Under the pieces are notes generated by a model. The model did no database searches and had not been told where the DNA came from. It saw only the letters and a program-made list of their open reading frames with translations. A program made the position numbers and the translations under genes. From a virus: a stretch of DNA of 64,000 nt. The stretch lies in the UHGV virus genome UHGV-0084588. The stretch is one strand, 5' to 3'. The stretch's first letter is position 1; every line of letters begins with the position of its first letter. This document shows positions 34,063-59,118 of the stretch, piece after piece.

Positions 34063-34593
34063 GTGATAGCGCGACTTGCGAGTCGGTTTAAGCAACGTCG
34101 GGCAAAGGCGGTCGAATGGCCGCCTATTACGCATGACGAGAAAGTAGTTTCTTTTTTGGAATATAACAAAGACCTGAAAAGATTAGGTGAGTTAATGCAC
34201 TTAACGGAACGTCAGGTTTTTGCTAAGATTTCAAGTAGTGTTTTACGTAAACAGGTAATTCCACACCTATCCTTTTCAGGGCAGGTTTTTGCAATAGCGA
34301 CAGAGGAATTTTTATCGATAGCGGGGAATGAAACCCCACGTATACGGTACTCAGTTACAGGTTCATCAGATGCGGTTGGTACAGTTGATTTCGGACGGTT
34401 GTATCAGAGCATTAAAAGTACGGGCCATATACATGTTAAACGGGTATCAGAAACTTCTGTAGTGATTTATCACCGTACTGAGAATGATTTGTTCGGGCGT
34501 GTTATAAGGCTAACAAACTTACGCAGTTTTTACGTTGATTTGCTTACAGAGTTTTATCCAGAACCATGGTGCTTTATAGATGAAAATAAATGA
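34063..34593 (+). CDS. hypothetical protein (176 aa, GTG start)
   Basis: GTG start with SD aggaagagg upstream. Confidence 0.5.
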   Translation: MIARLASRFKQRRAKAVEWPPITHDEKVVSFLEYNKDLKRLGELMHLTERQVFAKISSSVLRKQVIPHLSFSGQVFAIATEEFLSIAGNETPRIRYSVTGSSDAVGTVDFGRLYQSIKSTGHIHVKRVSETSVVIYHRTENDLFGRVIRLTNLRSFYVDLLTEFYPEPWCFIDENK

Positions 34594-34792
34594 CGGATAT
34601 ATCATCACGGCAATTGTTTCAACTGCGCTGATTGTAACAATGTTGATGTTCTACGTTAAGACTTCCGACGAATCACGTAAAGAATCTCTTTATCGTGAAT
34701 GTATGGCAGGTACTACGGTAGATAATCCACGCTACGCTGAATTGGTAATGGCGTGTACGGATTACGCTAAACGAATGGGAGGTGGAGGATGA
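34580..34792 (+). CDS. small membrane protein (70 aa, one TM, two Cys)
   Basis: N-terminal hydrophobic helix YIITAIVSTALIVTMLMFYV; paralog of the next ORF. Confidence 0.4.
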   Translation: MKINDGYIITAIVSTALIVTMLMFYVKTSDESRKESLYRECMAGTTVDNPRYAELVMACTDYAKRMGGGG

Positions 34793-34986
34793 AAATTTGG
34801 TTACCGATTCTAGTTTTTATCCTTATCGCAGGAGCACTAGCAAGTGCTGAGTACGATAATCGTGTTCTAGAAACAAAGCGCGAACTGTATCAGGACTGTA
34901 TAAAGGATTACACACCGGGTACAGAGCTTCATGCACAGGCTGTAAAAAGTTGTGCACTGATGGCCGAATCGCAGACTCGTTCCTAA
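34789..34986 (+). CDS. small membrane or secreted protein (65 aa), paralog of 34580-34792
   Basis: N-terminal hydrophobic segment WLPILVFILIAGALASA; shares the LY..C...T......A....C pattern with the upstream ORF. Confidence 0.4.
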   Translation: MKIWLPILVFILIAGALASAEYDNRVLETKRELYQDCIKDYTPGTELHAQAVKSCALMAESQTRS

Positions 34987-36008: not shown

Positions 36009-36212
36009 GCTTGACGCTTTTACTGGTAATGGAGGCCAAAGTAAACTTTTATCAAGACTTAGTAAACCCAGATCATGAGAACGCGGAATTGGACATCACT
36101 TTCACGTTAGAAGTTGATGGATTAAAACCAGTATAATAATCCGCTTATAAAAATGTTGGGGAGGTGCTTTACCTCCCCAGATCTTTTAGCTCCAGATAGA
36201 GAATTAAATATC

Positions 36213-39200
36213 ATGGCTAAAGCGGTAAAGAAAATACGTTTACACGATTTGCGTCCATACACCGGGGATATCGGTGAAGGCGTTTTACTTTTTTCGAAAG
36301 ACGAAAAAGATTATAAGTTACCCGTCCGCGAAATCGTTGCGGATATTGACACCGTCAGAAACGCGGTTGCTGATGCACAAACAGCTGCAGCCAAATCGCA
36401 GCAGTCTGCAACAGAAGCTACGCAAGCAAAAAATTTAGCGGAAACCGCGAAGCAACAAACTGACACGTTAGCTTCCACAGTCAGTGAGCAAGCGGGAACC
36501 GTTGCCACTAAAACTGCTGAAGTTAACAAAAAACACGCTGAAGTTTTAGCAGCGAAAACTGCCGTAGATACTGTTTCACAATCAGTAAATGAGAAGGCTC
36601 AAGCTGTCGCCACATCCGAACAATCTGTGACGGCTACGGCGGCTGATGTAACTAAGAAAGCAGAAACGGTTACGCAACAGGCCGGACAAGTTCAACAGAC
36701 GGCTACCAGCGTTGAAAATACCGCAGCTTCAGTCGAGGCCAGTAAAGGTGCAGTGGAGAAAATCGCTGCACAGGTCGCGAAAGATAAAGAAAGCTCAGAA
36801 GGGGCAGCTACGCGTTCGGAGTCAGCTGCCCTACGTGCGGAGAAAATCGCTGCCCAAGGATTAGTTGACGCTACTACAACCGGTAAAGGTATTGTTAAAC
36901 TTAACGATACCCTGACAAGCGATTCCGTGACTGAGGCTGCTACACCGTCCACGGTTAAACAGCTGAACGACGATTTACAGTTAAAAGCCAATAAACATTC
37001 GCCGAATTTTACGGGTAACCCGACATCCCCAAAACCGCCGAAGGACTCGAATGACACGAGTATCTCCACAACGTCCTGGGTGCGTGACGCGATTGCGGAA
37101 TTGGTTGGTTCTTCACCCGAGACGCTAAATACCTTAGCGGAATTAGCTGAGGCGTTAGGTAATGACCCTAACTTCGCAACAACGATCACTGAGGAACTTG
37201 CGCAGAAACAACCTCTCAGCCCGTTACTCACCGCTATTGCCGCAGTCACCACAGCGGCAAACAAACTCATGTATTTCACCGGCAGTAATAAAGTCGGATT
37301 AACAGATTTTACAGAAACGGCCAGATCCTTGTTAGCGAAAGGGTCAACTGCGGATATCATTAACTTCCTGGGTTTGAAACCCACCGTTGATAAAGCAAAC
37401 GGCGCATTACAGAAAAACTCTAACGGTGCTGATATCCCAAATAAAGAAACTTTTGCTCGCAACATCGGCCTATCTCCTGATACCTATCTGCGTTTCCGTG
37501 GCGAAATGCCTGTAGATGCTGATATTAACACATTTGCTCCAGATGCTAATTACACAGGAACATGGTCCAAGTCGACATCAACCAATGCGTCGATGGCAAA
37601 ACACTTCCCAGAAGACGGTGCAGTCGGTTATCTGGAAGTGTATAAAGCGGGCAACTACAGTGGAGCGCAACGTTTTACCTGCCGTAATGGTAACGTGTAC
37701 AACCGTATGTTGTCAGGTGCGTGGAACGGAACTAATGGCCCGTGGTCACCGTGGAGAATGGTAACTACCGGTGTACGTCCGTTATCTACATCGATCGATC
37801 TGAACTCCTTAGGCGGCGCTGAGCACATGGGTAACTGGCGTAACTCGTCCAGTTCGTTAGCGGTGTTCGACAGACATTATCCTGAAGAGGGCGGTAATGC
37901 GCAAGGCGTATTAGAAGTCATGGAAGGCGGTCTTTATGGACGGTTGCAACGATACACCACACGACATGGTACGATGTATGTCCGTGGTTTGACTGCGACT
38001 TGGGATTCTTCTAATCCGCAGTGGGAAGATTGGATTCAGGTTGGGTATCAGGTAGACGGTGCCTACTATAAGGGTAGCTTTAACGACTTAACTAAACCGG
38101 GCCGCTTTAGTGTTACCGGTGAGGCTACAGACAGTCCGTTAACAGACTCTGCTGGCGCAACCTTGCTAGGTGTTTGCGAAGTTACCTTACGCTTAGACGG
38201 TTCAGGCGTTGAACAAAATTATACCACATACGGTACAGGCGCAACTTCGAAAGGTCGCAAGTTCCAACGAATTCGTACAGGAAACGCCTGGAGCGAATGG
38301 CGAGAGATTTTCACATCCTATTCACTCCCGTTGACTTTAGGGATCGGTGGGGTTGCTGCTAAGGTCGATCCGTTAGACTGGCAAACATTCGACTTCGTTC
38401 CTGGCCAGATGATAAGTACACCGTTGAATACCATGAAAAATATTCCTGCGGGAATGGATTGGGGTGTTATCGACGGTAACTTGGTCACTATTCTTGTAGG
38501 GGCGTCGGAGGACACCGGTACTGGCCGGAGTATGTTGGTCTGGCGTGGTACAGTGTCTACTGCTAACTATCGCTTCTTTGCTGTTCGCGTCGCTGGTGAA
38601 AAGGGTAAACGTACTATTACTAGCCGCCAGATGCCCGTATTGAATGCAGCGCATACGTGGGCAGAAAAACAGACCTTTGCAAAAGGGTTATCGGGCGAAT
38701 TGACAGGTAATGCGTCAACGGCAACAAAACTGAAAACAGCCCGTTTAATCGGCGGTGTAAGTTTCGACGGTAGCGGCGACATTAGCCTCCCTGGTGTGAA
38801 CCAACAGGGTAATCAAAACACCTCTGGGAACGCGGGAACCGCAACCAAATTACAAACGGCTCGAAACATCAACGGTGTGAAATTTGATGGGTCTAGAGAC
38901 ATCAATATCAACACGTTGGTAGGACGTGGACGTGTTACTGCACTGTCTGGTTCAAACAAAGGTACACCCGGTATTCAGATGTACGAAGTTTACAATAACG
39001 GTTATCCAACCGCTTATGGTAACTTACTGCATTTGGGTGGCGCTACTGCGCTAGGTGAAGGCGAGCTGTTAATCGGATGGCCGGGGACGAGCGGTGCGCA
39101 CGCGCCTGTTTATATTCGTAGTCGACGTGATACGGCTGATGCACCGTGGTCAGATTGGGCACAAGTTTACACTGCCCGTGACAGCATTCCTGGCGTAAAT

Positions 39201-40655
39201 GCCACCGGTAATCAAGATACTACCGGCAACGCCGCTACCGCGACGAAACTGAAAACCGCTCGCAGGATCGGAGGCGTTACCTTTGACGGTACAGGTGATA
39301 TCAATTTACCGGGCGTTAACCAGCAAGGCAACCAGAATACGACAGGTAATGCAGCGACCGCTACTAAGTTACAAACCGCACGTAAGATCGGCGGTGTGCT
39401 TTTCGATGGGACAAAAGACGTTAATCTTCCTGGCGTAAACCAAACCGGTAACCAATCGACTACGGGGAATGCGGCGACAGCGACTAAGCTCCAGACTGCG
39501 CGAAATATAGGTGGTGTAGCTTTTGATGGTACTAAAGACATCAGTTTACCTGGAGTAAACCAAACAGGTAATCAGGCGACTACCGGAAACGCAGCCACGG
39601 CAACAAAGTTGCAAACCGCAAGAACCATTAACGGTATCGCATTTGACGGCACTAGAAATATATCGTTAGGACCTGCCGATATAGGTTGTCCGGCATCGCC
39701 TAGTGGTTGGTTAGAAACTGGCAAAGATGGCGGCGCAATAACTACAGCACAGCTAGTGACGTTATTGAAAAATAACGGCGCATTTACCACAAGATCGTGG
39801 GTTGCTCGCTGTGCATGGGCTTATGCCGCTAGTGCGTCCATACCACACAGCGAGACGGGTTGTGGTGTTATTCCGTTAGCTGGGGCCGTTATAGAAGTGA
39901 TTAGTAACGGTAATAGCACAAACAACTACACGATCCGTATAACGACTGCCACAACGGCGAGCGTCGGTGGCGCACTCACTAATGCGGAGTTTATCTACGT
40001 ATTTAACGGCGATACATACTCACCAGGCTGGCGTCGTGCTTACAATACGAGAAACAAGCCAACTGCTGCAGAAGTGGGTGCACTACCTTCGGGGGGCGGT
40101 ACTATAGGCGGCGATTTAACCGTTAACGGTAAATTGGCCACTAAATACCCTGATTTTCGAATCGCTTACGGTACCTACGGTTTTATTTTACGTAACGACG
40201 GTGCCAATACCTATTTCTTAGTAACCGACGCCGGACAAGCCGCAACGGGTTCCTGGAACGGATTACGCCCGTTGTCTTTTAATAATTCTAACGGCCAAGT
40301 AAACTTTGGACATAACGTTACTGGCAACGGTAACGGTTCGTTTAACGACGTACAGATTCGTTCTGACCGTCGTAACAAACGTAATCTGGTGAAGCTGGAT
40401 AAAGCTTTGGATCGGTTAGAGTTACTAACCGGTTATTTGTACGAAATTCAGCATCCGGATGACGGCTGGCAGACTTCTGTAGGTCTAATTGCTCAGGACG
40501 CATTAGAAGCGTTACCTGAACTTGTGTCTGAGGATGATGATGCCATTTCAGGCGAAAAACGTTTACGTCTAAACTACAATGGCGTTATTGCGCTGTTAGT
40601 AGAGGGTATGAAAGCGTTGCGTCAAGAGGTTAACGAAATTAAAGGAAGATCCTAA
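36213..40655 (+). CDS. tail fibre protein with Ala-rich coiled coil, 40-aa tandem repeats and C-terminal intramolecular chaperone (S74-like) domain
   Basis: 1480-aa ORF; repeats GNAATATKLQTAR.IGGV.FDGT.DI.LPGVNQ.GNQ.TT; C-terminal SDRRNKRN...GLIAQD...YNGVIALLVEGMKALRQE resembles the self-cleaving chaperone domain of tail fibres and tailspikes. Start moved from 36153 to 36213 by paralogy with 42678. Confidence 0.85.
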   Translation: MAKAVKKIRLHDLRPYTGDIGEGVLLFSKDEKDYKLPVREIVADIDTVRNAVADAQTAAAKSQQSATEATQAKNLAETAKQQTDTLASTVSEQAGTVATKTAEVNKKHAEVLAAKTAVDTVSQSVNEKAQAVATSEQSVTATAADVTKKAETVTQQAGQVQQTATSVENTAASVEASKGAVEKIAAQVAKDKESSEGAATRSESAALRAEKIAAQGLVDATTTGKGIVKLNDTLTSDSVTEAATPSTVKQLNDDLQLKANKHSPNFTGNPTSPKPPKDSNDTSISTTSWVRDAIAELVGSSPETLNTLAELAEALGNDPNFATTITEELAQKQPLSPLLTAIAAVTTAANKLMYFTGSNKVGLTDFTETARSLLAKGSTADIINFLGLKPTVDKANGALQKNSNGADIPNKETFARNIGLSPDTYLRFRGEMPVDADINTFAPDANYTGTWSKSTSTNASMAKHFPEDGAVGYLEVYKAGNYSGAQRFTCRNGNVYNRMLSGAWNGTNGPWSPWRMVTTGVRPLSTSIDLNSLGGAEHMGNWRNSSSSLAVFDRHYPEEGGNAQGVLEVMEGGLYGRLQRYTTRHGTMYVRGLTATWDSSNPQWEDWIQVGYQVDGAYYKGSFNDLTKPGRFSVTGEATDSPLTDSAGATLLGVCEVTLRLDGSGVEQNYTTYGTGATSKGRKFQRIRTGNAWSEWREIFTSYSLPLTLGIGGVAAKVDPLDWQTFDFVPGQMISTPLNTMKNIPAGMDWGVIDGNLVTILVGASEDTGTGRSMLVWRGTVSTANYRFFAVRVAGEKGKRTITSRQMPVLNAAHTWAEKQTFAKGLSGELTGNASTATKLKTARLIGGVSFDGSGDISLPGVNQQGNQNTSGNAGTATKLQTARNINGVKFDGSRDININTLVGRGRVTALSGSNKGTPGIQMYEVYNNGYPTAYGNLLHLGGATALGEGELLIGWPGTSGAHAPVYIRSRRDTADAPWSDWAQVYTARDSIPGVNATGNQDTTGNAATATKLKTARRIGGVTFDGTGDINLPGVNQQGNQNTTGNAATATKLQTARKIGGVLFDGTKDVNLPGVNQTGNQSTTGNAATATKLQTARNIGGVAFDGTKDISLPGVNQTGNQATTGNAATATKLQTARTINGIAFDGTRNISLGPADIGCPASPSGWLETGKDGGAITTAQLVTLLKNNGAFTTRSWVARCAWAYAASASIPHSETGCGVIPLAGAVIEVISNGNSTNNYTIRITTATTASVGGALTNAEFIYVFNGDTYSPGWRRAYNTRNKPTAAEVGALPSGGGTIGGDLTVNGKLATKYPDFRIAYGTYGFILRNDGANTYFLVTDAGQAATGSWNGLRPLSFNNSNGQVNFGHNVTGNGNGSFNDVQIRSDRRNKRNLVKLDKALDRLELLTGYLYEIQHPDDGWQTSVGLIAQDALEALPELVSEDDDAISGEKRLRLNYNGVIALLVEGMKALRQEVNEIKGRS
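38706..38912 (+). repeat. two tandem copies of a 120-bp (40-aa) fibre repeat inside the tail fibre gene
   Basis: Encodes GNASTATKLKTARLIGGVSFDGSGDISLPGVNQQGNQNTS followed by a diverged copy. Confidence 0.7.
39225..39680 (+). repeat. four tandem copies of the 120-bp (40-aa) fibre repeat inside the tail fibre gene
   Basis: Copies begin at 39225, 39345, 39465 and 39585; each encodes GNAATATKLQTAR.IGGV.FDGT.DI.LPGVNQ.GNQ.TT with synonymous codon drift. Confidence 0.8.
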
Positions 40656-47870: not shown

Positions 47871-48647
47871 ATGAAAACTATCGAGTTTAAGAATAGTAGT
47901 CTTTGGGCATACACGCACATCATTACGAGTTTCCTGAGAAACGTTACTCCACATCTTGCTTATCAGATTTATGGGAATGAGCTCACTATCGGTGGTTTTA
48001 ACGAGGATGAATTAAAACGAGCAAAAGAGTTCATTGACGATGTTCTTCGTGGTGAAGCAACGTGTTTAGTTGCAAGTTACGTTGCTAAAGACAAAGGAAG
48101 ATTAAACGTCATGGCAATTTTCAGATCGTTCTCCGAAAAAGTATACGAAGTTGAGAAGATTAGTCATACCGTTTATATTGTTTACTTTAAACGTTCGGCG
48201 GAGAAAAACGCTGATAAAATTCTGGAGTATTTCGACTGTAACCCGGGGGAAGGTATGGATGTCTATACGCTCGGTTACGATGGGGTACCTCACCGGAATA
48301 ACCTTATTCGCATTGACGAACCTTTTTCAGTCAATGACGATTCCTCGCCTATAGAGATGGTTCTGGTACACAAAGATCGTTTCGCGCATTACGACTCTGA
48401 TACTATTCAACGTGTCCTGAACAACGTTAATATACAGTTTTCACAAACCGAGCACTTAGTACGTGCATGTCTTAGGTCTAATGGCACAACATCATTTTTC
48501 TTCGAACGTCAAACCGTTTGGCAAACTTATCTGGCTCTGATGGAAGAACTTGATAGGATCGAGCCAGTTCAGGTTGGTGCAAATTGCTTATATTGGATAA
48601 AAACAAAAGGGTTCATGAATGAAAACGCTCAATTCAGATTTGCGTGA
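47871..48647 (+). CDS. hypothetical protein (258 aa)
   Basis: ORF with SD aaggaaa upstream. Confidence 0.5.
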   Translation: MKTIEFKNSSLWAYTHIITSFLRNVTPHLAYQIYGNELTIGGFNEDELKRAKEFIDDVLRGEATCLVASYVAKDKGRLNVMAIFRSFSEKVYEVEKISHTVYIVYFKRSAEKNADKILEYFDCNPGEGMDVYTLGYDGVPHRNNLIRIDEPFSVNDDSSPIEMVLVHKDRFAHYDSDTIQRVLNNVNIQFSQTEHLVRACLRSNGTTSFFFERQTVWQTYLALMEELDRIEPVQVGANCLYWIKTKGFMNENAQFRFA

Positions 48648-49047
48648 TTACATCCGTCAGTACCCAGCCAGTATTCCTGTACTGGCTTCACTTACGCTTT
48701 CAGGTACTGACGTTAACATCTTAACGGTGGAACAGTTCCACGAGATAATAAAAACCGCCTATAACTCCATTACCGCAACGTCAGTACGTAAACGTTGCGA
48801 TTATCCCGACGGGGATTTCGGCACCGAGATGTTTACCGATTACGCAGTTGCGTTTCTGTTAGGACGACACTGCCTCGATAAACTTAACACTGCAGTAGAA
48901 GGGGAAACAGTGACGGAAATAGTCAACGCTTGGCAGCAACGTATTCTGAGCGACCCTTACTGCCGCCAGGCGTTAAAACGAATGTCCACAACGGCGATTA
49001 CAAACGACCAGCGTGCTTTAGAGTTCTTTAAGCACAACTACAGCTAA
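48619..49047 (+). CDS. hypothetical protein, paralog of 49908-50339 (142 aa)
   Basis: N-terminal L.D.IR.YIR..P....VLA.....TD....L...E...EI..T.Y..I shared with 49908-50339. Confidence 0.5.
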   Translation: MKTLNSDLRDYIRQYPASIPVLASLTLSGTDVNILTVEQFHEIIKTAYNSITATSVRKRCDYPDGDFGTEMFTDYAVAFLLGRHCLDKLNTAVEGETVTEIVNAWQQRILSDPYCRQALKRMSTTAITNDQRALEFFKHNYS

Positions 49048-49907: not shown

Positions 49908-50339
49908 ATGTTTTTCGTATTAAATGATGAAATCCGTAACTACATTCGTAACAATCCGATTGCTCTGGGCGTTTTAGCAGGTTTCTGTCGCCCAAATACT
50001 GACTTCGATTTAGTTAAGTTAGAAGAATATCAGGAAATTGTGAATACTAACTACATGCACATCTGTAGCTGGGGTAAACGTCCTCGTGAAGAGTACCCTG
50101 TAGGTGAGTTAGGTGACACTATGCATCGTGACCAGAATCTGATGCACGAATTCGTTGAATACACACTGGAAAATCTTAACTATCCGCTTCTGGTCGACAC
50201 TGTACCAGAAATGGTTGACGAATGGTTAAGTCGTGTTTACAATGACCCTACTACCAACAAGTTACTGAGTCAGATGTCGCAAACTTCTCGTGATATCGAC
50301 ACTCGCACCCTAATGTACTTAGCACACAACGTTCGCTAA
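49908..50339 (+). CDS. hypothetical protein, paralog of 48619-49047 (143 aa)
   Basis: See 48619-49047; conserved leader acctaaaggagtatta upstream; terminator downstream. Confidence 0.5.
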   Translation: MFFVLNDEIRNYIRNNPIALGVLAGFCRPNTDFDLVKLEEYQEIVNTNYMHICSWGKRPREEYPVGELGDTMHRDQNLMHEFVEYTLENLNYPLLVDTVPEMVDEWLSRVYNDPTTNKLLSQMSQTSRDIDTRTLMYLAHNVR

Positions 50340-50505: not shown

Positions 50506-51354
50506 ATGTCTCTTACGTCAAAACAGAAACTGCTAAAACTCATCAACACTGAAAACAATATTGTTCCGCCATTGACCTTCAGTGATGTTGATATCGGCGA
50601 ACCTACTGGTACTGGGGTTGATACCCAGGTGGTTCTGACTTCTAAACTCAAAGGCGATGAGTCTACTACTTTAACGGTGACTTACCATCGTCGTAATTTG
50701 CCAGAATACCTAACAGGCGAGTTGGTATTCGGTAACGACGGTGTTGTAACTGCTGCAGATTTGCTTAATGCAATCAACGCAAAATACGATTTAAATATTC
50801 TGCCGTCAGATATCGTTGATGCGAAAGTTGAAGGTAAAACCCACCAACTTGCCGCTAACGAGAAATCCTACGAGTGGTGTGGCGAAGTGACACTTACGCT
50901 ACGCGATCCTATTGATCTGGCTAAACTGCTACCTGTTACTCAATTAGAAAACCTGGTAGAGTATCCGTCCACCAAGAAAGGTAACGCTGCGGTTTATTCT
51001 TATCCGATTGACTTCACCGCAGAAAAAGATTACCTTGATCCGATTACCATTAACGACACCGTAGACTTAGTAGAGTTAGCTACTAAACTGACTAACGTTG
51101 TTGACGAGAAATGGGTAAGCGTACCTAAGAACGCTGCTAATAACTTGTTCGGTGCTAAGGTTATCTACGATGGCCCTACCGCAGGTTTCGAAGGCGCAAA
51201 TGCGAAGTACACGCGTGTGCTGGTACTCGCCCTAAGCGGTATGTGTTCTAACCTGACCGGTAAACTGTTAATTCACTTTAACGGAACCGATCGTCCGAAG
51301 TCGAAGATTGAATTAGCCAAGACTAATTCGGTCTTACCGGGATTCTTAGATTAA
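50506..51354 (+). CDS. member of a six-copy paralogous protein family, possibly structural (282 aa)
   Basis: N-terminal pattern L..LIN..N......T..DV..GEP.....G..T.V.LT.........(Y/H).R shared with 51368, 54511, 55107, 35448 and 42163. Confidence 0.55.
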   Translation: MSLTSKQKLLKLINTENNIVPPLTFSDVDIGEPTGTGVDTQVVLTSKLKGDESTTLTVTYHRRNLPEYLTGELVFGNDGVVTAADLLNAINAKYDLNILPSDIVDAKVEGKTHQLAANEKSYEWCGEVTLTLRDPIDLAKLLPVTQLENLVEYPSTKKGNAAVYSYPIDFTAEKDYLDPITINDTVDLVELATKLTNVVDEKWVSVPKNAANNLFGAKVIYDGPTAGFEGANAKYTRVLVLALSGMCSNLTGKLLIHFNGTDRPKSKIELAKTNSVLPGFLD

Positions 51355-51367
51355 GAGGATTACAGTA

Positions 51368-51844
51368 ATGACCAGTCAAGAAACTATCTTCGACCTTATT
51401 AAAAAGGCTAACCCAGACGCCGAGCTCGACACCGCCAAAGTCACATTGGGTGAGCCCGTCGTAAGTACCGGTACGTACAACACCGAAATTACGGTTGCGC
51501 CGGTGAAGAATCTCGGTTATGTTAATAAGCAAACGTTCCAGTATAACCGCATTGATGCAGGTTTGTATTTCCTCAACGTATTGCCGAAACTGTTAGTTGA
51601 AACAGCCACCACGACTGCGGACTTGCTGCCTGTAATTAACGAGCAGTATGGCTTAACCCTTACCGAAGACGATGTGTGGGTAGAGCAGGTTGGTGCGTTA
51701 CCGCTAGACGGCAGTGCAATCGAGCACGGTATTTTCTTCCGCCCAGAGTGTCTAACCTGGGTCGGTGGTTTTACAGTGCGTGTTGCGCGTAAACCGTCTG
51801 TCGAGACACCGCCAGCTAAGCCATCGCGCGCTAAGAAGAAATAA
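51368..51844 (+). CDS. member of the same paralogous family (158 aa)
   Basis: Family pattern as above; terminator downstream. Confidence 0.55.
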   Translation: MTSQETIFDLIKKANPDAELDTAKVTLGEPVVSTGTYNTEITVAPVKNLGYVNKQTFQYNRIDAGLYFLNVLPKLLVETATTTADLLPVINEQYGLTLTEDDVWVEQVGALPLDGSAIEHGIFFRPECLTWVGGFTVRVARKPSVETPPAKPSRAKKK

Positions 51845-51848
51845 CTAC

Positions 51849-51884
51849 AGGGTGGGGTAATCCCACCCTCTTTTCTTTTTTTGT
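51849..51884 (+). terminator. rho-independent terminator before the lysis cassette
   Basis: GGGTGGGG-taat-CCCACCC followed by tcttttctttttttg. Confidence 0.5.
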
Positions 51885-51906: not shown

Positions 51907-52497
51907 ATGGCCGAACGTTGGACTAAAGAAGGTATTATTGAATCAAAAACAGATTTAGAGGGTGGGTACGTGAACGACCCTGACGATAAAGGTGGGGAAA
52001 CCTGTCACGGGGTAACACTGACAACTGCACGCGAATACGGGTACAAAGGAAGAATGAAAGATCTGACCCGTGCGCAAGCGTTTGATATTTACGATCGTGG
52101 TTGGTGGAAGAAACTTAAACTCGATGAGATTTTCGCTATCTCGCCGATACTCGCAGACCGGATGTTTGATTTTGGTATTAACTCTGGCCGTGTTAACTGT
52201 GTGAAATCATTACAACGTATTCTCAACGTTTTAAATAACGAAGGGAAACTTTACGCAGATATTGACACCGACGGTGGCATGGGCCCTAAAACGCTAGGTG
52301 CCCTGAATGCTTATCTGAATTACCGTAAAGGCGAGGGATTAGGCATCTTAATCTTTGCGTTAATCTCACACCAGGTAACCTACTACACGGAAATCTCCGA
52401 AAAGCGTAAGAAGAATGAAAAATTCGCTTACGGCTGGTACGGACGCGTGTACAGGGAAATGCCGGATTATGTAGTGAAGGCGGGGTTAGTAAAATGA
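51907..52497 (+). CDS. endolysin, glycoside hydrolase family 108 muramidase with peptidoglycan-binding C-terminal domain
   Basis: N-terminal EGGYVNDPDDKGGETCHGVT is the hallmark GH108 motif; the C-terminal half resembles the associated PG-binding domain. Confidence 0.8.
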   Translation: MAERWTKEGIIESKTDLEGGYVNDPDDKGGETCHGVTLTTAREYGYKGRMKDLTRAQAFDIYDRGWWKKLKLDEIFAISPILADRMFDFGINSGRVNCVKSLQRILNVLNNEGKLYADIDTDGGMGPKTLGALNAYLNYRKGEGLGILIFALISHQVTYYTEISEKRKKNEKFAYGWYGRVYREMPDYVVKAGLVK

Positions 52498-52613
52498 ATT
52501 GGTTTGCTAAACTCTTAGCACTATTGTGGAAAGCGTTAACGTCTGGACGGAAACGTAAAGACGAAAAGCGTGGGTACGAATTTTTCTGGTTTCTATAAGG
52601 GAAGGTGTGGGTA

Positions 52614-53279
52614 ATGGAGAAGCTTCAATATAAACGTTTAGACAATAAGTGGTTTGTATTAACGGAGGATTACCATTATCCGTTTACGTTACGCGAGATT
52701 TATCACGACCACGTACACTTAGACCGTGCGGTTTATTTAACGGGTGTATTGCCTGACACGCAACTGTGGTTAACAGCACCGAAAGGGTTCGTTACCGATT
52801 TAGCGTCAATTCCTGATCACCTCCAGGGAATTTTCCATCCTGACGGACCGTGGGCACCTGCGGCCTGTATTCACGACTTACTCTATCAAAAATGCAACAC
52901 AGAGCGTAGCTATCCCATGACACCGGGTGGTAACGTTTCGCGTTTTATCGATAAAGAGTTCTCTGACTTAACTTTCCTGCGTATTATGCAGTCGTTGGAA
53001 ATCTCGCCTTATATCTGCCAAACATTTTATAAGGCTGTTGTTGAATTCGGCTGGGATGCCTACGTAGATCCTAATGCAAAGCCATCCTACAACACTAACG
53101 CGTTTCGTACGTTAGATTACAATCGAAACTATTTATTCGTTCGCGAGTTTAAGGAACCTGCAATCCCTGACCACGAACGTATTGATATCACCACAGATTG
53201 TCCCGTTAATGTCAAATACCTGAACATCAAACGGGCATTTCTGTCTGGGAGGGAAGATGTTTCATCCAAATCCGAGTAA
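52614..53279 (+). CDS. DUF1353-like phage protein
   Basis: GFVTDLASIP...HD.LY resembles the DUF1353 signature as I recall it; ATG at 52614 preferred over the track start 52605. Confidence 0.4.
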   Translation: MEKLQYKRLDNKWFVLTEDYHYPFTLREIYHDHVHLDRAVYLTGVLPDTQLWLTAPKGFVTDLASIPDHLQGIFHPDGPWAPAACIHDLLYQKCNTERSYPMTPGGNVSRFIDKEFSDLTFLRIMQSLEISPYICQTFYKAVVEFGWDAYVDPNAKPSYNTNAFRTLDYNRNYLFVREFKEPAIPDHERIDITTDCPVNVKYLNIKRAFLSGREDVSSKSE

Positions 53280-53772
53280 CTTTAAACTCAGAGAGTTAGT
53301 ACCACAGTCCTATATTGCCAAATACGGTGATTCCGCAATTCGGTTTATGAATCCGTTGTTAATGATTTCCCTACAACAGATTCGTAACCGTTTCGGTAGA
53401 ATGGTGATTAACTCAACTGCCGCACAACAGCGCGGACTAAGAACCTTAGATTTCTTTATTAATCAAGAAAAGCCTAAGGGTGGTAGTTATAAACAACGTG
53501 CGTTGCAGCTTTACGCCGATTCAGGAAGTCAACACAAATTCGGTAACGCTATTGATGCAACGTTGTTGGATAGCACCGTAAAACAGGTTCACGACTATAT
53601 CGCTGCTAACCCTGACGAGTTTCCGTTCATTCACTTTATTGAATGTGATATCAGTTGGTTACACATCGACGTTCGTAACCAACCTAACATTACTTTCTGG
53701 TCACCAAACCGTGGCACTGTGAAGGTTGTTAAGCAAAAGCCAATCGATTGGAGCGCCTTAGTCGAGATTTAA
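53257..53772 (+). CDS. peptidase M15-like cell-wall hydrolase
   Basis: SQHKFGNAIDA fits the S.H..G.A.D zinc-binding motif and WLHID fits the second His motif of M15/VanY-type peptidases. Confidence 0.55.
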   Translation: MFHPNPSNFKLRELVPQSYIAKYGDSAIRFMNPLLMISLQQIRNRFGRMVINSTAAQQRGLRTLDFFINQEKPKGGSYKQRALQLYADSGSQHKFGNAIDATLLDSTVKQVHDYIAANPDEFPFIHFIECDISWLHIDVRNQPNITFWSPNRGTVKVVKQKPIDWSALVEI

Positions 53773-53855: not shown

Positions 53856-53892
53856 TACCCTACTCCCGTTAAGGAGTAGGGTACTTTTTATT
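53856..53892. terminator. bidirectional terminator between convergent genes
   Basis: TACCCTACTCC-cgttaa-GGAGTAGGGTA with a flanking A-run and ctttttattg; lies between 53257-53772 (+) and 53888-54379 (-). Confidence 0.65.
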
Positions 53893-54379
53893 GTTCCGCA
53901 GGATGGAGCATTGTTCCAGTGTCAGGCGCTACACCTTCTATACAGCGGAAGAAAGTAATGCCTTTACCATCGCCCGTTTTATATTCTAAAGTAGAATACG
54001 CAAATGTTGGTGTTTTTGAAAGCAAACCATTTACACGGTAGTAACGTTGTCCCGTGATAGGATCAATATTCCCATTAACTTTACCTAATAAATCTTTATA
54101 AAGTTGGGGCGACTCAATCTTACCATTTGGCCAAGTGGCTACCCAATTAGCACCAGTATCGACTACGGTTACTGAGCCTAACATTAGATTAGTCGAGCTG
54201 ACGACAGGTTTGTAATTTGCAAAATCTTGCTCTACACCCATGCAGGTGTAAATAACCATGTCGTGTGGCTCCACCGGCACAGTCGAGAATTGGCCGTTAC
54301 CATTTGGTTGTAAGGCACATCCTGCTAATGAAAAAACACCAAGCATAACGATAAGAAAACGCTTTATCATACTTTTCAC
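53888..54379 (-). CDS. lipoprotein (163 aa)
   Basis: Signal peptide with lipobox LAGC (MKSMIKRFLIVMLGVFSLAGCALQ); lone minus-strand gene between plus-strand genes; bidirectional terminator downstream. Confidence 0.65.
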   Translation of the reverse strand: MKSMIKRFLIVMLGVFSLAGCALQPNGNGQFSTVPVEPHDMVIYTCMGVEQDFANYKPVVSSTNLMLGSVTVVDTGANWVATWPNGKIESPQLYKDLLGKVNGNIDPITGQRYYRVNGLLSKTPTFAYSTLEYKTGDGKGITFFRCIEGVAPDTGTMLHPAEQ

Positions 54380-54510: not shown

Positions 54511-55041
54511 ATGGCTAAAACCTTCCAACAGCAACTTATTGACGCTGTTAATACCAAAAACAGTACCCTGGACCCCGCACTCACCGTAGCTGATGTTGAC
54601 TTTGGTGCTGTTGCTGAGTTCACCGGAGAAGCTGGCCGCAACACTAAAATTACCCTGACCGCCAAGGAAGAAAGCCAGCACTTCAAGGGCGAGAAAGAAT
54701 TCCACTATACTCGTCTTTCATGCGACATCGTTGGTGAAGTTGAAGTAACTGCACCTGCTACCGATTTCGATTCAGCAGCGAAAATCCTGGCGAAAGTTAA
54801 CGCAGCCATGGCTGAGAAAGGGTACACCGATGACGAGTTCGGTGAAAACGACCTGCAAAGTATTTCTCGTGAAGAAGAAGGCAAAACCATTTACGTAGTA
54901 ACTGTTGTGGCCGGACACCTGAAGTTCCTGCCAGGCACTGTTGCAACGTATAAAGTTACTCCTCCGGCTCCTGAGAAAGTAGCACTGGACGGTCTGGAAG
55001 GTGAACTGGATAGCTTCACTGCACCGCTTCCTAAAGAGTAA
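54511..55041 (+). CDS. member of the six-copy paralogous family, codon-biased (176 aa)
   Basis: Family pattern; host-like codon bias suggests high expression; a sigma70-like -10 element lies upstream. Confidence 0.6.
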   Translation: MAKTFQQQLIDAVNTKNSTLDPALTVADVDFGAVAEFTGEAGRNTKITLTAKEESQHFKGEKEFHYTRLSCDIVGEVEVTAPATDFDSAAKILAKVNAAMAEKGYTDDEFGENDLQSISREEEGKTIYVVTVVAGHLKFLPGTVATYKVTPPAPEKVALDGLEGELDSFTAPLPKE

Positions 55042-55106: not shown

Positions 55107-55637
55107 ATGGCCGCTACTAACCAGATGATGTTGGTCGCGCTTTATAATGCTGCTAACACTGAGCTACCACATCAGATTACTGATAAAGAAGTGTCCTTTG
55201 GTCTCCCTACTGCGCTGGAAGGCAAAAGTAAGAATACCAAAGTTACCATGACTGCACTACCGGGTTCTGAGAATTTCAAAGGCGCAATCGAGCTGCATTA
55301 CGATCGTCTGGAGCCGGGTGTTGTAGGACGTATTGAACTAACTGACGATTTGTCTCGTTGGGAAGATCAAAACGAATTGCGCGCATGGTTACAATATTAC
55401 ATCAACAAAGTAAAACCTGACGACGCTATCGCACCTGGTGACGTTGTGTACAGCACCGAAGACCAGAAAGACGAACATGATAACGTCACACTGCGTACGG
55501 TAACGTGCACCGTTACTGAAAAGAACCTCCGTTATAAACCGGGTGTAATGGCAACTTTCGTAATTACGCCGAAAGTTGTTGACAATCGTATTGACCTGGC
55601 CACTACCAACGGCGAGCTGGACGGCTTTACGTCCTAA
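55107..55637 (+). CDS. member of the six-copy paralogous family (176 aa)
   Basis: Family pattern; bidirectional terminator downstream. Confidence 0.6.
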   Translation: MAATNQMMLVALYNAANTELPHQITDKEVSFGLPTALEGKSKNTKVTMTALPGSENFKGAIELHYDRLEPGVVGRIELTDDLSRWEDQNELRAWLQYYINKVKPDDAIAPGDVVYSTEDQKDEHDNVTLRTVTCTVTEKNLRYKPGVMATFVITPKVVDNRIDLATTNGELDGFTS

Positions 55638-55700: not shown

Positions 55701-56372
55701 TTACAGCCCTTGCTCTAACGCAAACGCTTTTATCGAATCGTAATCACGCGCCTCAGCCCAAGCCCTGACTTCTTTTTTCTGCTCAGACATTGCGTGGTGT
55801 AGTCTTTGATCACGCGCAACGATTGCTGCCATCAGCGCTTTGCACTGCTCTAACGAAAAAGGTTCGATGCGGGTGTTAGCCGTGTCCAACCAATAACTCG
55901 GTGCTGTTTCAGACTGGATATACTGGCCCAACATTTGACGAGACGTTTCGTCCGCTTGGAAGTAGCGACCATCGACTTCAATATATCCGTGGCGCTGATC
56001 TTCATAACGGTGTTCCATCTCCAACATGATTTTCTGGATATCGAGATAGATGTAACGCGCCGTCGAACGCATATTCGTTCGAATCTCTTCCAGGTTAATC
56101 TCCAGAACGTCAGTAATGAATTCTTTTGCTTTGTTCAGTGTAAACTTCGACTCGATAGGAGACATTTCGTAAGTTTTCATCTGGGCTAAAGCTTCTTCAT
56201 CACTCATCCCTTCAATCAACTTGTAGTGCAGTAATGCACAGAACCCCGTACGTCCACGGTCTTCGTTACCTACACGTTCCATGTAGTTACCATGGCGGTC
56301 AATTGGTAGATCGTGCGCGAAATAACGTGCGCGAATCTCTTCTTTCGTTAAGCTTTTGTTAGAAGCAGACAT
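55701..56372 (-). CDS. hypothetical protein, last gene of the radical SAM operon (223 aa)
   Basis: ORF overlapping the upstream gene; HD..H-like motif near the N-terminus is too weak to call. Confidence 0.5.
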   Translation of the reverse strand: MSASNKSLTKEEIRARYFAHDLPIDRHGNYMERVGNEDRGRTGFCALLHYKLIEGMSDEEALAQMKTYEMSPIESKFTLNKAKEFITDVLEINLEEIRTNMRSTARYIYLDIQKIMLEMEHRYEDQRHGYIEVDGRYFQADETSRQMLGQYIQSETAPSYWLDTANTRIEPFSLEQCKALMAAIVARDQRLHHAMSEQKKEVRAWAEARDYDSIKAFALEQGL

Positions 56373-56938
56373 TCTTCTTCTCCAACCATACCTAATTCTT
56401 GCAGCAAGCCAAAATCAATCAACTGGAAGGTTTCAGAGAGATCGTTTGACCACACCACGTTTGCAATGTCGCGTTCTTCATCGGATAATTGCGGTAACAC
56501 ATTTTCGTTGAACGTCTGATGCTCTACGTAATAAGCATCGTAGATAGACGTAGAACGCAAGCAACGGATTGGCAGTCTTGGGAAAGACACCGCTAATGCA
56601 GCAATAGATGCGCTGCTCGGATTCTCCGCAGAATAGCGAAGCAATTCGATTTTGTGGCGCGGATAGTCCAGTACGCGTTGCTCGAAACCCGGATTACGTT
56701 TTTCGATTTCAACAACGGACTCATGACCTGTTTCTGTACAGTAAACGGGAATCATCACGTTTAGCCCGTACTTAATTAACAGAGGTTTAATCTCATCTGT
56801 AAAGTCTTCGCCAGGGATAATGGCGTGAACGTTATAGAGTTTATGTTTGCGCAGAAAACGCTCAACCAGATGGAGTTTACGCTTCGTAAAATTGTGGATC
56901 AGAATTGATTTCATTATTTGCCTCAGTAGGTTGTGCAT
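56348..56938 (-). CDS. hypothetical protein in the radical SAM operon (188-196 aa)
   Basis: ORF overlapping the rSAM gene stop; an alternative ATG at 56914 has SD gagg. Confidence 0.5.
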   Translation of the reverse strand: MHNLLRQIMKSILIHNFTKRKLHLVERFLRKHKLYNVHAIIPGEDFTDEIKPLLIKYGLNVMIPVYCTETGHESVVEIEKRNPGFEQRVLDYPRHKIELLRYSAENPSSASIAALAVSFPRLPIRCLRSTSIYDAYYVEHQTFNENVLPQLSDEERDIANVVWSNDLSETFQLIDFGLLQELGMVGEEECLLLTKA

Positions 56939-58211
56939 TTAAAGCACGTTTAGCTTGCTCACGCTCACGCGTACATTTCGGACAGTAACAAACAGACGAA
57001 TCGTGCAGTGACGATGCGTGGACGGTACCCGTACGTTGACGCCAGTATTCTGCTGCCATCAGTTTTGCGGTCGTCCAGCCACATTGACGACGTTCAGCGT
57101 GGTACGCCTTACGGTCTTCCAGTGTCCCTTCACCGTTTTCGTAGGAAGCAGCTGCACAGCTGCCACAACCGTGTTTCATCGGACAGCCTAAGCACGTTTC
57201 AGGGTAGTTAGTATATTGCGTCTGAATCTCTTCCAGCAGCTTCCCGTCATCTAAACTAACGAACTCGCGACCAACTAATTCAAACACCGCAGAACGTGAC
57301 GTTACCGTTGACATAAAACGGTTACAACCGTATACCTTGCGGTCAAAACCTAAACAGGTCATGAACGTTAACGTACCACAGAACGGACGTAGGCGATCTG
57401 GGTTATAACGATGCGTGTCGTCATACAGCAGCTTATCGCGCCAATCTGGGTCCCAAATCTGACGGAAATCCAGACCTTCGGGAATGATATGTGACAACAC
57501 GTTACGTGGATTGGTGTGCAACCCTTTCTCAATCCAATAATCCATCACGTCGATCATCTGCAACGCAATATCCGTTGCCATGCTCCGTGGAAGAATATCT
57601 TCGTACGTAACGTTACCTGAAATCGTACCGCCACCGGCAACATCGATTAGCGATTTCATACTCGCTGCATAATGCGGTAACGTTTCGGTCGTAAAGGTTG
57701 CCTTGATACCCAGTTCAGCAATACCGACTTCTTTTAAGTAGTTATAGCCACGAACAGCGGCTTCGTAAGAACCTTGACGCGTCGTGGTAAAGATACGATA
57801 GCGGTCATGGACTTCTGGTAAACCGTCGATAGAAACACCGATGGAGAGTTTGTCTTTCCAACGCTCAACAATCTCACGGTTTAACGGGCGATCTAACAAC
57901 GTACCGTTAGTTGAGATACTGAACATATACGGGCGATTGTGCTCCTTACACAACTGTTCTGCGGTTTCGAACGCCGCTAACAGCAGTTTCGGTTGCATAA
58001 AAGGCTCACCGCCGATGATATCAATAATGACGTCGATGTTCGGAATATCTTTATCGCGCTCAAAACACGCGTGTAAGAAATCCACGATATCCGCCGCTTT
58101 GTTATTACGCGGATACTTACGTTCGTAACAATACTCACAGTCTAAGTTACAAGACAGATTCGTTACCACCTGGTAAGTACGTTGAGAACGTGGTGCTTCA
58201 TTATTGCTCAT
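56877..58211 (-). CDS. radical SAM enzyme with C-terminal SPASM-like Cys-rich domain (444 aa), candidate peptide maturase
   Basis: Canonical CNLDCEYC (CxxxCxxC) near the N-terminus; C-terminal clusters FCGTLTFMTCLG...GCNRF and CLGCPMKHGCGSCAAA fit the auxiliary Fe-S pattern of SPASM/twitch domains. Confidence 0.75.
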   Translation of the reverse strand: MSNNEAPRSQRTYQVVTNLSCNLDCEYCYERKYPRNNKAADIVDFLHACFERDKDIPNIDVIIDIIGGEPFMQPKLLLAAFETAEQLCKEHNRPYMFSISTNGTLLDRPLNREIVERWKDKLSIGVSIDGLPEVHDRYRIFTTTRQGSYEAAVRGYNYLKEVGIAELGIKATFTTETLPHYAASMKSLIDVAGGGTISGNVTYEDILPRSMATDIALQMIDVMDYWIEKGLHTNPRNVLSHIIPEGLDFRQIWDPDWRDKLLYDDTHRYNPDRLRPFCGTLTFMTCLGFDRKVYGCNRFMSTVTSRSAVFELVGREFVSLDDGKLLEEIQTQYTNYPETCLGCPMKHGCGSCAAASYENGEGTLEDRKAYHAERRQCGWTTAKLMAAEYWRQRTGTVHASSLHDSSVCYCPKCTREREQAKRALNAQPTEANNEINSDPQFYEA

Positions 58212-59118
58212 CTTTGCTTATCCTTTTACGCTCTGCATAAATCACGCGTTTAATGTACTCGTAAGCACCTACTCCAATAGAGCAAGCGAGCTGATTGCAG
58301 CCACCGTTTAAGATAGCTGGGGCATTCTGAAGCTGATGTTCTGTTCCATCTGCGTTCAAATACAACTCTTCGCTACAAACATTACACTCGTTTTCGAAAA
58401 TCTTGCTGACAGACACGCCGCACGATTCTCCAGTTTGGACGTTCAACCGTTCCATATTCTCCTGAATTTTTAAATAGCCATAAACGAAGTTCATGACGTG
58501 ATCAGGAGACAATGGTTTTGGCATCTGCGCATCAAACATTAGAGAAAACGCACGGGGACGATAGTGGTACATCGCACGATGCAAATCCACAATATCTTCA
58601 TACCAGCGCTTATCCGCTAACTGGTCACGCGTAATCACAGCCCAGGTTTGGAAATTATCGAGTTCGTATAACGCTTCCAATGCTTCGTGGCTATCCTCTT
58701 CAATAAAGCGCATAAAAGGGCGCTCAGAACGCTTGTAGCCATCAATTGATACAAACACATGCTCAAAGTCTTTTAGCAGCGTAAGATGCGATTTACGCAG
58801 TTTTAAGCCGTTGGTATACAAGTGATGCTCAAGGTGCGGATGAGACACTTTCAATTCGTTAACGAAATCCTCAATCTTACGTTGGACGAGTAGCGGCTCG
58901 CCACCGGTCCAATGTATTTCCTTAATAGCCGGATTCTCTTGTAGTAATTCCAGGATACGTTCGCGTTGAAAAGCACGAGACGAATCTTCACGATTCATGT
59001 AGTAGGCTCCACCGCAGAAACTACAATCTAGGTTACACTTAGACGTCGTAACTACGGACAATATAGTGGGTTTATCGTACAACTTCGTCGAGATCCTGGA
59101 TTCCACATTGTCTATCAT
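58201..59118 (-). CDS. radical SAM enzyme (305 aa)
   Basis: CNLDCSFCGG (CxxxCxxC) motif; GGEPLL glycine-rich SAM motif; C-terminal CNVCSE...GGCNQLACS Cys cluster; overlaps the downstream rSAM gene by 11 nt. Confidence 0.7.
   Translation of the reverse strand: MIDNVESRISTKLYDKPTILSVVTTSKCNLDCSFCGGAYYMNREDSSRAFQRERILELLQENPAIKEIHWTGGEPLLVQRKIEDFVNELKVSHPHLEHHLYTNGLKLRKSHLTLLKDFEHVFVSIDGYKRSERPFMRFIEEDSHEALEALYELDNFQTWAVITRDQLADKRWYEDIVDLHRAMYHYRPRAFSLMFDAQMPKPLSPDHVMNFVYGYLKIQENMERLNVQTGESCGVSVSKIFENECNVCSEELYLNADGTEHQLQNAPAILNGGCNQLACSIGVGAYEYIKRVIYAERKRISKDEQ

Follow-up and report, generated by a model that had tools for sequence, protein, structure and literature searches.

A candidate lysis operon combining two wall hydrolases with a phospholipase A2-like protein in an SPN3US-like jumbo phage

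In canonical phages, holins and spanins perform the inner- and outer-membrane steps of host lysis. We wanted to understand how these steps might be accomplished where peptidoglycan hydrolases are encoded with no recognizable holin or spanin beside them, a question raised by positions 51907 to 53772 of a 64,000-nucleotide stretch (hereafter the window) of the UHGV virus genome UHGV-0084588. A preliminary description, made from the sequence alone, had seen here a lysis cassette with a GH108 muramidase, a DUF1353-like gene, and an M15-like peptidase. Host lysis by jumbo phages is almost unstudied; holins and spanins go unmentioned in a 2026 review of their biology. The reading that we favor, with moderate confidence, is that an SPN3US-like jumbo phage demolishes the host envelope with an operon expressed late (a lysis operon) at this locus, in which four genes are tightly packed and a lipase and/or a small peptide would supply the membrane steps.

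The four genes of the cassette

The first gene of the cassette (51907-52497, plus strand), whose ATG at 51907 is preceded by a ribosome-binding site (AAGAGGAG), encodes a 196-residue protein that matches the Pfam families Glyco_hydro_108 (PF05838; E=3.7e-23, 82.3 bits against a cut-off of 21.2) and, in its C-terminal part, PG_binding_3 (PF09374; E=5.2e-16, 59.0 bits against a cut-off of 24.6). The protein also matches PHROG 315, labelled "endolysin" (6e-43), and its best solved relatives are Sen1395 (6V3Z) and TtsA (6V40), at E~1e-44, with the EGGY motif of the window protein (DLEGGYVNDPDDKGG) aligning with the same motif in both structures; we take EGGY to be the conserved N-terminal GH108 motif that bears the catalytic Glu. 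The NCBIfam model "holin-associated N-acetylmuramidase" was matched weakly, below its cut-off. The protein appears soluble, having no signal peptide, signal-arrest-release sequence, or other hydrophobic segment. We conclude that 51907-52497 encodes a predicted GH108 N-acetylmuramidase, as had been proposed in the preliminary description, and that this enzyme is of the TtsA type.

The last gene (53257-53772, plus strand) encodes a protein of 171 residues that itself has no Pfam match, even at E<=1. It matches PHROG 894, also labelled "endolysin" (E=6e-28), and within its family Peptidase_M15_3 was detected in 16 of 24 members (best E=6.8e-08) and M15_4 in 12 of the 24. Alignment of 24 homologues revealed that R62, H93, D100, H136, and D138 are invariant, giving the metal motif H-x6-D...H-x-D, and a profile alignment placed H93-x6-D100 on H116/D123 of VanX, which we take to be zinc ligands. 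Thus, the zinc triad (H93, D100, and H136), on which the M15-like assignment had been staked beforehand, is present in every aligned homologue. Foldseek, run with the AlphaFold model (pLDDT 94.3), returned M15 enzymes as its top six PDB matches (1LBU, VanXYc, LdcB, and VldE among them), followed by Hedgehog N-domains, with weak statistics (best E=0.027, probability 0.94, TM-score 0.42). Searches of PDB sequences with this protein and with the DUF1353 protein, singly or as profiles, gave nothing meaningful, and NCBIfam has no model for either of them, for the mini-peptide, or for the neighboring lipoprotein described below. On the strength of the family profiles, the metal-site residues, and the modelled fold, we conclude that 53257-53772 encodes a predicted, divergent M15/LAS zinc metallopeptidase. 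We note that, in the Vibrio phages J2 and K227 (~40-kb VP2-like podophages), a gene of this M15-like family lies between the major head and tail tubular genes, outside any recognizable lysis cluster, yet is labelled "endolysin"; its product there may be a virion lysin or an endolysin.

The gene upstream of the peptidase gene (52614-53279, plus strand) encodes a protein of 221 residues. The ORF (open reading frame) spanning 52605-53279 matches Pfam DUF1353 (PF07087; E=1.8e-14, 53.6 bits against a cut-off of 22.5), and the likely start is the ATG at 52614 rather than position 52605 because a 221-residue homologue, 96% identical, begins there. A DUF1353 protein encoded in the typhoid-toxin islet, TtaP, was reported in 2024 to be a phospholipase A2 (PLA2) that has His70 and Asp85 as its catalytic dyad, with Asp71 next to the histidine; its D85A mutant is inactive, and it shares its five-gene islet with the muramidase TtsA (PMC11525133). 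In an alignment of 24 DUF1353 homologues, which included short members from outside the jumbo phages, H87, D88, and D118 of the window protein and the motif GFVTDLASIP are invariant; the correspondence of these residues to H70, D71, and D85 of TtaP was made by motif, spacing, and the published description. The His-to-Asp spacing is 15 residues, as in TtaP, in short members such as P0081, and the jumbo-phage form carries an insertion there. The protein appears soluble, with no signal peptide, and has beta-rich extensions at its N and C termini. Foldseek with the AlphaFold model (pLDDT 91.7) and a sequence profile found nothing in the PDB; a structural comparison revealed a resemblance to the core of group XIII/XIV secreted PLA2s, the best structural match being a PLA2. 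A profile search of a 5.8-billion-protein collection gave at least 5,696 members of the family, with TtaP absent among the 120 listed. We conclude, by analogy with TtaP, that the DUF1353 protein is a predicted PLA2-type enzyme, sn-2 hydrolysis having been demonstrated for TtaP only. Databases label the protein as a "tail assembly chaperone" (PHROG 1158 and RefSeq), and we consider this widespread label on these DUF1353 proteins to be probably wrong. The preliminary description was right to place a DUF1353-like gene between the two hydrolases, but its treatment of this gene as filler does not hold because the product is TtaP-type, PLA2-like, and the sole member of the cassette that is constant across related genera.

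A fourth gene, absent from the gene list of the preliminary description, occupies 52494-52598 (plus strand), its start overlapping the stop of the GH108 gene (ATGA). This mini-gene encodes a 34-residue peptide, MNWFAKLLALLWKALTSGRKRKDEKRGYEFFWFL, in which an amphipathic helix is followed by a basic cluster; the net charge is +5, and the hydrophobic moment of 0.45 was attained in none of 2000 shuffles. A search of this mini-ORF against PHROG gave no match. Its NWF..L......AL..RRKR motif is shared with mini-ORFs at the corresponding position of SPN3US and Erskinevirus phages (PHROG 25143). Compared with four close relatives, the mini-gene has 9-10 synonymous and 2-4 non-synonymous changes (pS~0.45, pN~0.02-0.05), and the adjacent GH108 gene has a similar substitution pattern. 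Since the excess of synonymous changes matches that of its neighbor, we conclude that purifying selection acts on the mini-gene, which is therefore a real gene. The peptide is amphipathic and not a classical transmembrane segment. In other genera, a different small ORF, with an acidic N terminus and a C-terminal transmembrane helix, occupies the same position, and both types occur in SPN3US; small transmembrane ORFs were seen at this position in SPN3US, Caitlin, and Wellington. Judged from its sequence, the mini-peptide resembles an antimicrobial peptide, but a holin-like or regulatory role is equally possible.

The spacer in which the mini-gene lies differs among relatives. In the window, the gap between the GH108 and DUF1353 genes is 116 nucleotides and holds one mini-gene, whereas in SPN3US it is 288 nucleotides and holds an NWF-type mini-ORF, an ORF with a GFFKLLRAIF motif, and an ORF for a 30-residue transmembrane peptide (MQYDNDDWPKGLMPILLGLMVLTMLVRYMT). 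We note that the longer spacers of SPN3US and Erskinevirus phages contain extra conserved mini-ORFs that are missing from the window (7101-7286 and 7250-7342 in the SPN3US record, 2906-2992 in L020, and 2865-2993 in L021), one of which encodes the amphipathic motif GFFKLLRAIF(L/C)RRV and overlaps the NWF mini-ORF in another reading frame. The window peptide ends in GYEFFWFL, possibly a vestige of the GFFKLLRAIF motif.

The four genes overlap or abut one another, the DUF1353 and M15 genes sharing 23 nucleotides at their junction, and the cassette is bounded on both sides by terminator-like hairpins. On its 5' side, a plus-strand hairpin at 51849-51869 (9-bp stem with 6 GC pairs and a CTTTTCTTTT tail) closes the upstream DUF7941 head-protein gene; on its 3' side, a bidirectional hairpin at 53856-53883, with stems of 11-13 bp and T-runs on each strand, ends the cassette as well as a convergent lipoprotein gene. 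A scan for sigma-70 promoters found fewer sites than in shuffled sequence, a result that carries no information here, since phages of the phiKZ type transcribe with RNA polymerases of their own.

Membrane proteins, conservation, and proteomics of the locus

To look for membrane proteins, we ran a Kyte-Doolittle scan over all ORFs of 25-260 residues in six frames. No ORF of the cassette reaches the threshold applied to it, a hydropathy of 1.6 over 19 residues. In agreement with the earlier statement that no classical holin with several transmembrane segments is evident nearby, within 5 kb the scan turned up no such ORF in any frame likely to be coding, and the sole convincing hydrophobic segment within that distance is the signal peptide of the lipoprotein encoded at 53888-54379, all others lying in overlapping or antisense frames. 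The absence of a holin nearby does not, though, amount to the absence of a membrane-active component, given the 34-residue peptide. The lysis role proposed in the preliminary description is plausible: the genes are packed closely between the two hairpins, and the homologous SPN3US proteins are no stable part of the virion. Neither a spanin pair nor a unimolecular spanin was found within the window, and the transmembrane ORFs of the window gave no match to known holin or spanin families.

The lipoprotein gene (53888-54379, minus strand), convergent with the cassette, is the only ORF with a lipobox in the window. Its 163-residue product (PHROG 9559, no assigned function) has the lipobox LAGC with Ala at position +2, which suggests sorting to the outer membrane, and conserved cysteines in the motifs YTC and FFRC. 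SPN3US, Stratton, and Wellington have lipobox-bearing homologues at the corresponding locus, the position being conserved in four lineages. We weighed two spanin assignments, o-spanin and unimolecular spanin, and discarded both because the protein has no C-terminal transmembrane segment and no i-spanin or transmembrane partner, and is encoded on the opposite strand. It may act in superinfection exclusion, in regulation, or as a partner of the cassette, and its membership in the system is uncertain. Elsewhere in the window, a 192-residue protein (17355-17933, plus strand; PHROG 8722, no assigned function) has two predicted transmembrane helices (residues 101-119 and 136-154) and, as the only such candidate in a plausible gene of the window, is a possible unlinked holin. 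Further, two overlapping genes (34580-34792 and 34789-34986, plus strand) encode small paralogues of 70 and 65 residues, each with a transmembrane or signal segment at its N terminus and a pair of conserved cysteines in its C-terminal portion. This pair had no PHROG match and no blastn relatives in the phage collection; the two could be membrane or periplasmic proteins, and we considered them as a holin/antiholin pair.

Next, we asked how the locus compares with those of known phages. When the region was compared by megablast with 50,697 phage records, no match was found, and relatives surfaced by blastn and tblastn only; these matched the region to the SPN3US group (jumbo phages of Salmonella, Erwinia, and Cronobacter), with ~70% nucleotide identity to SPN3US across aligned parts amounting to 30-36% of the query. 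Contigs of ~225 kb in IMG/VR encode proteins 95-96% identical to those of the window. On these sequence matches, the window belongs to an SPN3US-like jumbo phage and, since no megablast-level match exists, to a species or genus different from SPN3US. Gene order around the cassette is that of SPN3US gp150-gp165, namely head-protein paralogues, gp156, gp157, gp158, the convergent gp159, gp160, DUF4376, and two radical-SAM genes. Within it, gp156-gp157-gp158 and gp159 of SPN3US (genus Seoulvirus) have the same order, strands, and flanks as their counterparts in the window (DUF7941, convergent lipoprotein, DUF4376, and radical-SAM pair); protein identity is 58% for DUF1353 and 78% for M15. The full set of GH108, mini-ORF, DUF1353, and M15 is found in Seoulvirus and in the window; Erskinevirus, Machinavirus, and Wellingtonvirus have GH108, the mini-ORF, and DUF1353, without M15; Derbicusvirus (Phobos and CR5) has DUF1353 and M15, without GH108 at the locus; and in a more distant 178-kb jumbo contig DUF1353 adjoins a GH108 gene. 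Judged from these gene contents, DUF1353 is the member that stays constant in all six jumbo genera or lineages, and the wall hydrolase (GH108, M15, or both) is interchangeable. It follows that two enzymes in one cassette are not the unusual feature they had first been taken for: GH108-DUF1353-M15 is conserved across Seoulvirus, with "endolysin" appearing twice in some records. As a cassette it is therefore not new, since phages already known carry it and have it in part annotated.

We then turned to published proteomics, using spectral counts from nine SPN3US preparations (PMC7411985 Table S2; a later data set of the laboratory that compiled the SPN3US virion list), in which the debris-rich samples are the differential-centrifugation and lower-band fractions that contain cellular debris and flagella. 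The GH108 homologue gp156 gave 3 and 2 spectra in the debris-rich samples, 0 in tailed particles purified by buoyant density, and 2 in DNA-full heads; the DUF1353 homologue gp157 gave 14 and 25, 0, and 0; the M15-like gp158 gave 8 and 11, 2, and 4; and the lipoprotein gp159 gave 8 and 13, 0, and 0, so that gp159 appears in the debris-rich fractions alone, where gp157 is found as well (PMC7411985). In a wild-type SPN3US virion preparation, gp156 had 0 spectra, and gp158 was judged by the SPN3US authors to be non-specifically associated and no true virion protein (PMC5694885). From these published tables we infer that gp156-gp159 would be made late and would not be stable structural components, the lipase and the lipoprotein appearing to track envelope fragments.

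How the cassette might act, and rival explanations

Because the three enzymes lack an export signal and no holin or spanin lies nearby, the lipase and/or the peptide are candidates for both membrane steps. In the mechanism that we propose, the soluble TtsA-type GH108 muramidase would cut the glycan strands, the soluble M15 zinc peptidase would cut a stem or cross-link peptide bond, the DUF1353 PLA2-type enzyme would turn membrane phospholipid into lysophospholipid and fatty acid, and the 34-residue cationic amphipathic peptide would insert into membranes. In a plausible sequence of events, damage to the inner membrane by the peptide and/or an unlinked holin would come first; the enzymes would then gain the periplasm, where millimolar Ca2+ would activate the PLA2-type enzyme (group XIII/XIV PLA2s are calcium-dependent), and the inner leaflet of the outer membrane would be hydrolyzed, completing lysis in place of a spanin. 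The analysis itself establishes the gene identities, the conserved catalytic residues, the similarity of folds, the operon structure, the synteny, and the selection on the mini-gene; the late timing, the PLA2 activity, the membrane attacked, and lysis rather than entry are inferred. For single ideas within this mechanism there are precedents in a patatin-based cassette proposed for phage WO and in the phiKT disruptin and mycobacteriophage LysB discussed below.

Several observations weigh against this reading. The window is about a quarter of a genome of ~225-240 kb, and a holin or spanin pair could lie elsewhere. The late timing is our own reading of the proteomic tables, and gp157 is listed among 86 SPN3US virion proteins as a low-abundance "Head" protein (4 peptides, 9 spectra) in material purified by CsCl step gradient only. 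Two long-form jumbo lineages have no recognizable wall hydrolase beside DUF1353, and deletion of ttaP in Salmonella gave no toxin-secretion or envelope phenotype (PMC11525133). The contexts of DUF1353 outside the clade are mixed. In favor of a lysis link, the neighbors of the gene in Fusobacterium phage FNU_1P are an L-Ala-D-Glu peptidase endolysin on one side and a holin on the other; in Fusobacterium phage Fnu1 an amidase gene is two genes away, and in Pseudomonas phage Cygsa01 DUF1353 overlaps an endolysin gene. A census by Pfam of the 108 nearest ORFs at 28 representative short-DUF1353 loci in IMG/VR gave seven lysis-type matches (three holins, two M15_4, one lysozyme, and one amidase), and tail-type matches were as frequent (three GpU, three DUF4376, and single tail-fiber and minor-tail matches). 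Moreover, many DUF1353 genes are ordinary chromosomal genes of alphaproteobacteria in housekeeping contexts. We therefore dropped the general claim that DUF1353 is a lysis gene, the census showing modest lysis counts mixed with tail-fiber genes where we had expected endolysins or holins to be clearly enriched. Given the mixed neighbors and the housekeeping copies, we conclude that DUF1353 is a general lipid-hydrolase family whose link to lysis is confined to some phage lineages, namely the jumbo clade and a few others.

One rival explanation is an ordinary endolysin locus, in which redundant or complementary endolysins work with a holin and spanins encoded elsewhere, and the DUF1353 protein and the peptide are accessories or passengers (for example in membrane remodelling). 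With just 64 kb of the genome visible, a two-helix protein at 17355-17933 and two small proteins with N-terminal transmembrane segments at 34580-34986 in the window, a GH108 protein whose nearest NCBIfam model is named for its association with holins, and a ttaP deletion that lacks a phenotype, this explanation has points in its favor; we nevertheless regard it as unlikely because DUF1353 is translationally coupled to wall hydrolases and constant across the six jumbo genera or lineages, its catalytic residues do not vary, none of the transmembrane ORFs of the window belongs to a known holin or spanin family, and the single lipoprotein in 64 kb has no i-spanin partner.

The virion listing of gp157 bears instead on entry, according to which the lipase, and perhaps the M15 protein, would be low-copy virion proteins that breach the wall or remodel membrane at infection. 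Such a role could be linked to the membrane vesicle that, early in infection, encloses injected DNA in nucleus-forming jumbo phages, an infection stage that has been described (PMC13282480). The 2-4 spectra of gp158 in purified tailed particles and heads, the embedding of the cassette among DUF7941 head-protein paralogue genes, and the position of the M15-like family between head and tail-tube genes in VP2-like Vibrio podophages point the same way. In the better purified particles and heads, however, gp157 falls to 0 spectra, against 14 and 25 in debris-rich material where it is accompanied by gp159; gp158 is regarded by those who studied it as a non-specific associate; and gp156 is absent from wild-type virions and purified tailed particles, with merely 2 spectra in purified heads. 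We therefore consider an entry role improbable. Least credible of all, in our judgment, is that the DUF1353 protein is a tail (fiber) assembly chaperone with no enzymatic role, as the PHROG 1158 and RefSeq label has it. A DUF4376 or tail-fiber gene does lie directly upstream of DUF1353 in Burkholderia phage FLC6, in a Helicobacter prophage, and in Derbicusvirus, and tail-fiber families are common among DUF1353 neighbors; in many phages, lysis genes simply come after tail-fiber genes, which would explain this adjacency. We found no experimental basis for the label, and the catalytic His/Asp/Asp are invariant in the 24-sequence alignment even in short non-jumbo members, a family member (TtaP) is a proven PLA2, and the best structural match is likewise a PLA2.

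Overall, we favor the envelope-demolition operon over these explanations. Beyond it, we raise a further proposal that we hold to be possible but doubtful, namely that the DUF1353 enzyme, alone or with the mini-peptide, represents a new class of lysis protein, an enzymatic disruptor of membranes that replaces the spanin and possibly the holin in SPN3US-like jumbo phages; the TtsA-TtaP pair would then be a domesticated copy of the phage module. In the literature that we searched on DUF1353 in phages and on the TtaP phospholipase, we found no link of the family to phage lysis. New relative to that literature are three readings, of a PLA2-type protein as constant partner of the wall hydrolases, of a selected cationic mini-gene beside it, and of a pair that mirrors TtsA-TtaP.

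Genomic surroundings and comparison with known systems

The cassette is flanked by four plus-strand DUF7941 paralogues identified by Pfam and PHROG (50506-51354, 51368-51844, 54511-55041, and 55107-55637), whose SPN3US counterparts are the "paralog family B" head proteins, gp160 being present in >300 copies per capsid; a non-structural operon thus sits inside a run of capsid-content genes. Downstream lies a minus-strand block that encodes a DUF4376 protein (55701-56372), a 196-residue protein of no assigned role (56348-56938), and two overlapping radical-SAM-like proteins (56877-58211 and 58201-59118), a label that comes from the SPN3US annotation. This block adjoins the cassette in all related genera and is directly upstream of DUF1353 in Derbicusvirus. 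Farther away, a 1500-residue tail-fiber-like protein (36153-40655, plus strand) shows, in its translation, tandem repeats of ~30 residues (GNQ.T.GNA.TATKLQTAR.I.GV.FDG..D) and, judged from the translation alone, a C-terminal segment that resembles an auto-cleaving intramolecular chaperone domain. Two plus-strand genes (48619-49047 and 49908-50339) encode paralogues of ~142 residues with similar N termini, LRDYIRQYPASIPVLASL and IRNYIRNNPIALGVLAGF, the second of which matches PHROG 8484 (no assigned function).

Several known systems resemble the cassette in part. Like a lambda-type holin-endolysin-spanin cassette, the window clusters genes for envelope destruction, with a soluble endolysin that has no export signal; unlike it, the window cassette has no transmembrane holin, no i-spanin/o-spanin pair, and no unimolecular spanin. 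The closest parallel to its mini-peptide, by analogy, is the "disruptin" gp28 of phage phiKT, a 56-residue, cationic, amphipathic, membrane-associated peptide that disrupts the outer membrane and is a proven substitute for spanins (bioRxiv 10.1101/515445). The window peptide is likewise small, cationic, and amphipathic, and is found in a spanin-less lysis context, but it has 34 residues, and the likeness is one of properties. A bioinformatic analysis in the phiKT study found that ~15% of the phages examined lack spanins, and disruptin is the one substitute described (bioRxiv 10.1101/515445); if our reading is true, the outer membrane could be opened in a third manner, by a phage-encoded phospholipase acting together with wall hydrolases. 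Further, a set of muramidase, peptidase, lipase, and peptide that acts on Gram-negative envelopes would be of interest for enzybiotic design.

With the M15/LAS peptidases (the Streptomyces albus DD-peptidase 1LBU, VanXYc, LdcB, and Peptidase_M15_3), the window protein shares the metal-site motif and fold; it differs in falling below Pfam detection, in an N-terminal helical part of ~50 residues, and in an insertion after R62, and its TM-score against 1LBU is merely 0.42. The pairing of a wall hydrolase with a lipid hydrolase, as proposed for the window, has a counterpart in mycobacteriophages, in which LysA is a wall hydrolase and LysB a lipid-ester hydrolase that handles the outer lipid layer at lysis. 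LysB, however, is an alpha/beta-hydrolase (cutinase-like) mycolyl-arabinogalactan esterase and thus has a fold unrelated to DUF1353, another substrate, and another type of envelope.

In gene content, the cassette also resembles the typhoid-toxin islet of Salmonella Typhi, a secretion system of the holin/peptidoglycan-hydrolase type, in which a GH108 enzyme with PG_binding_3 (TtsA) and a DUF1353 protein (TtaP) are clustered as they are in the window. The catalytic H-D...D is found in both DUF1353 proteins, but TtaP has 125 residues, whereas the phage protein has 221, with extra beta-rich parts at its N and C termini. The islet exports toxin without lysis, and its TtsA is specific for the LD-crosslinked (3-3) wall. 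Because the GH108 protein has TtsA and Sen1395 as its closest solved relatives and lies beside a TtaP-type DUF1353 protein, the phage cassette and the toxin islet appear, by sequence comparison, to share a muramidase-phospholipase pair. TtaP now has an activity and no known function; if our reading of the phage cassette is true, it would explain the presence of a PLA2 beside TtsA in the islet, and the more doubtful proposal of a domesticated phage module would assign to TtaP a role in breaching the outer membrane after the wall has been cleaved.

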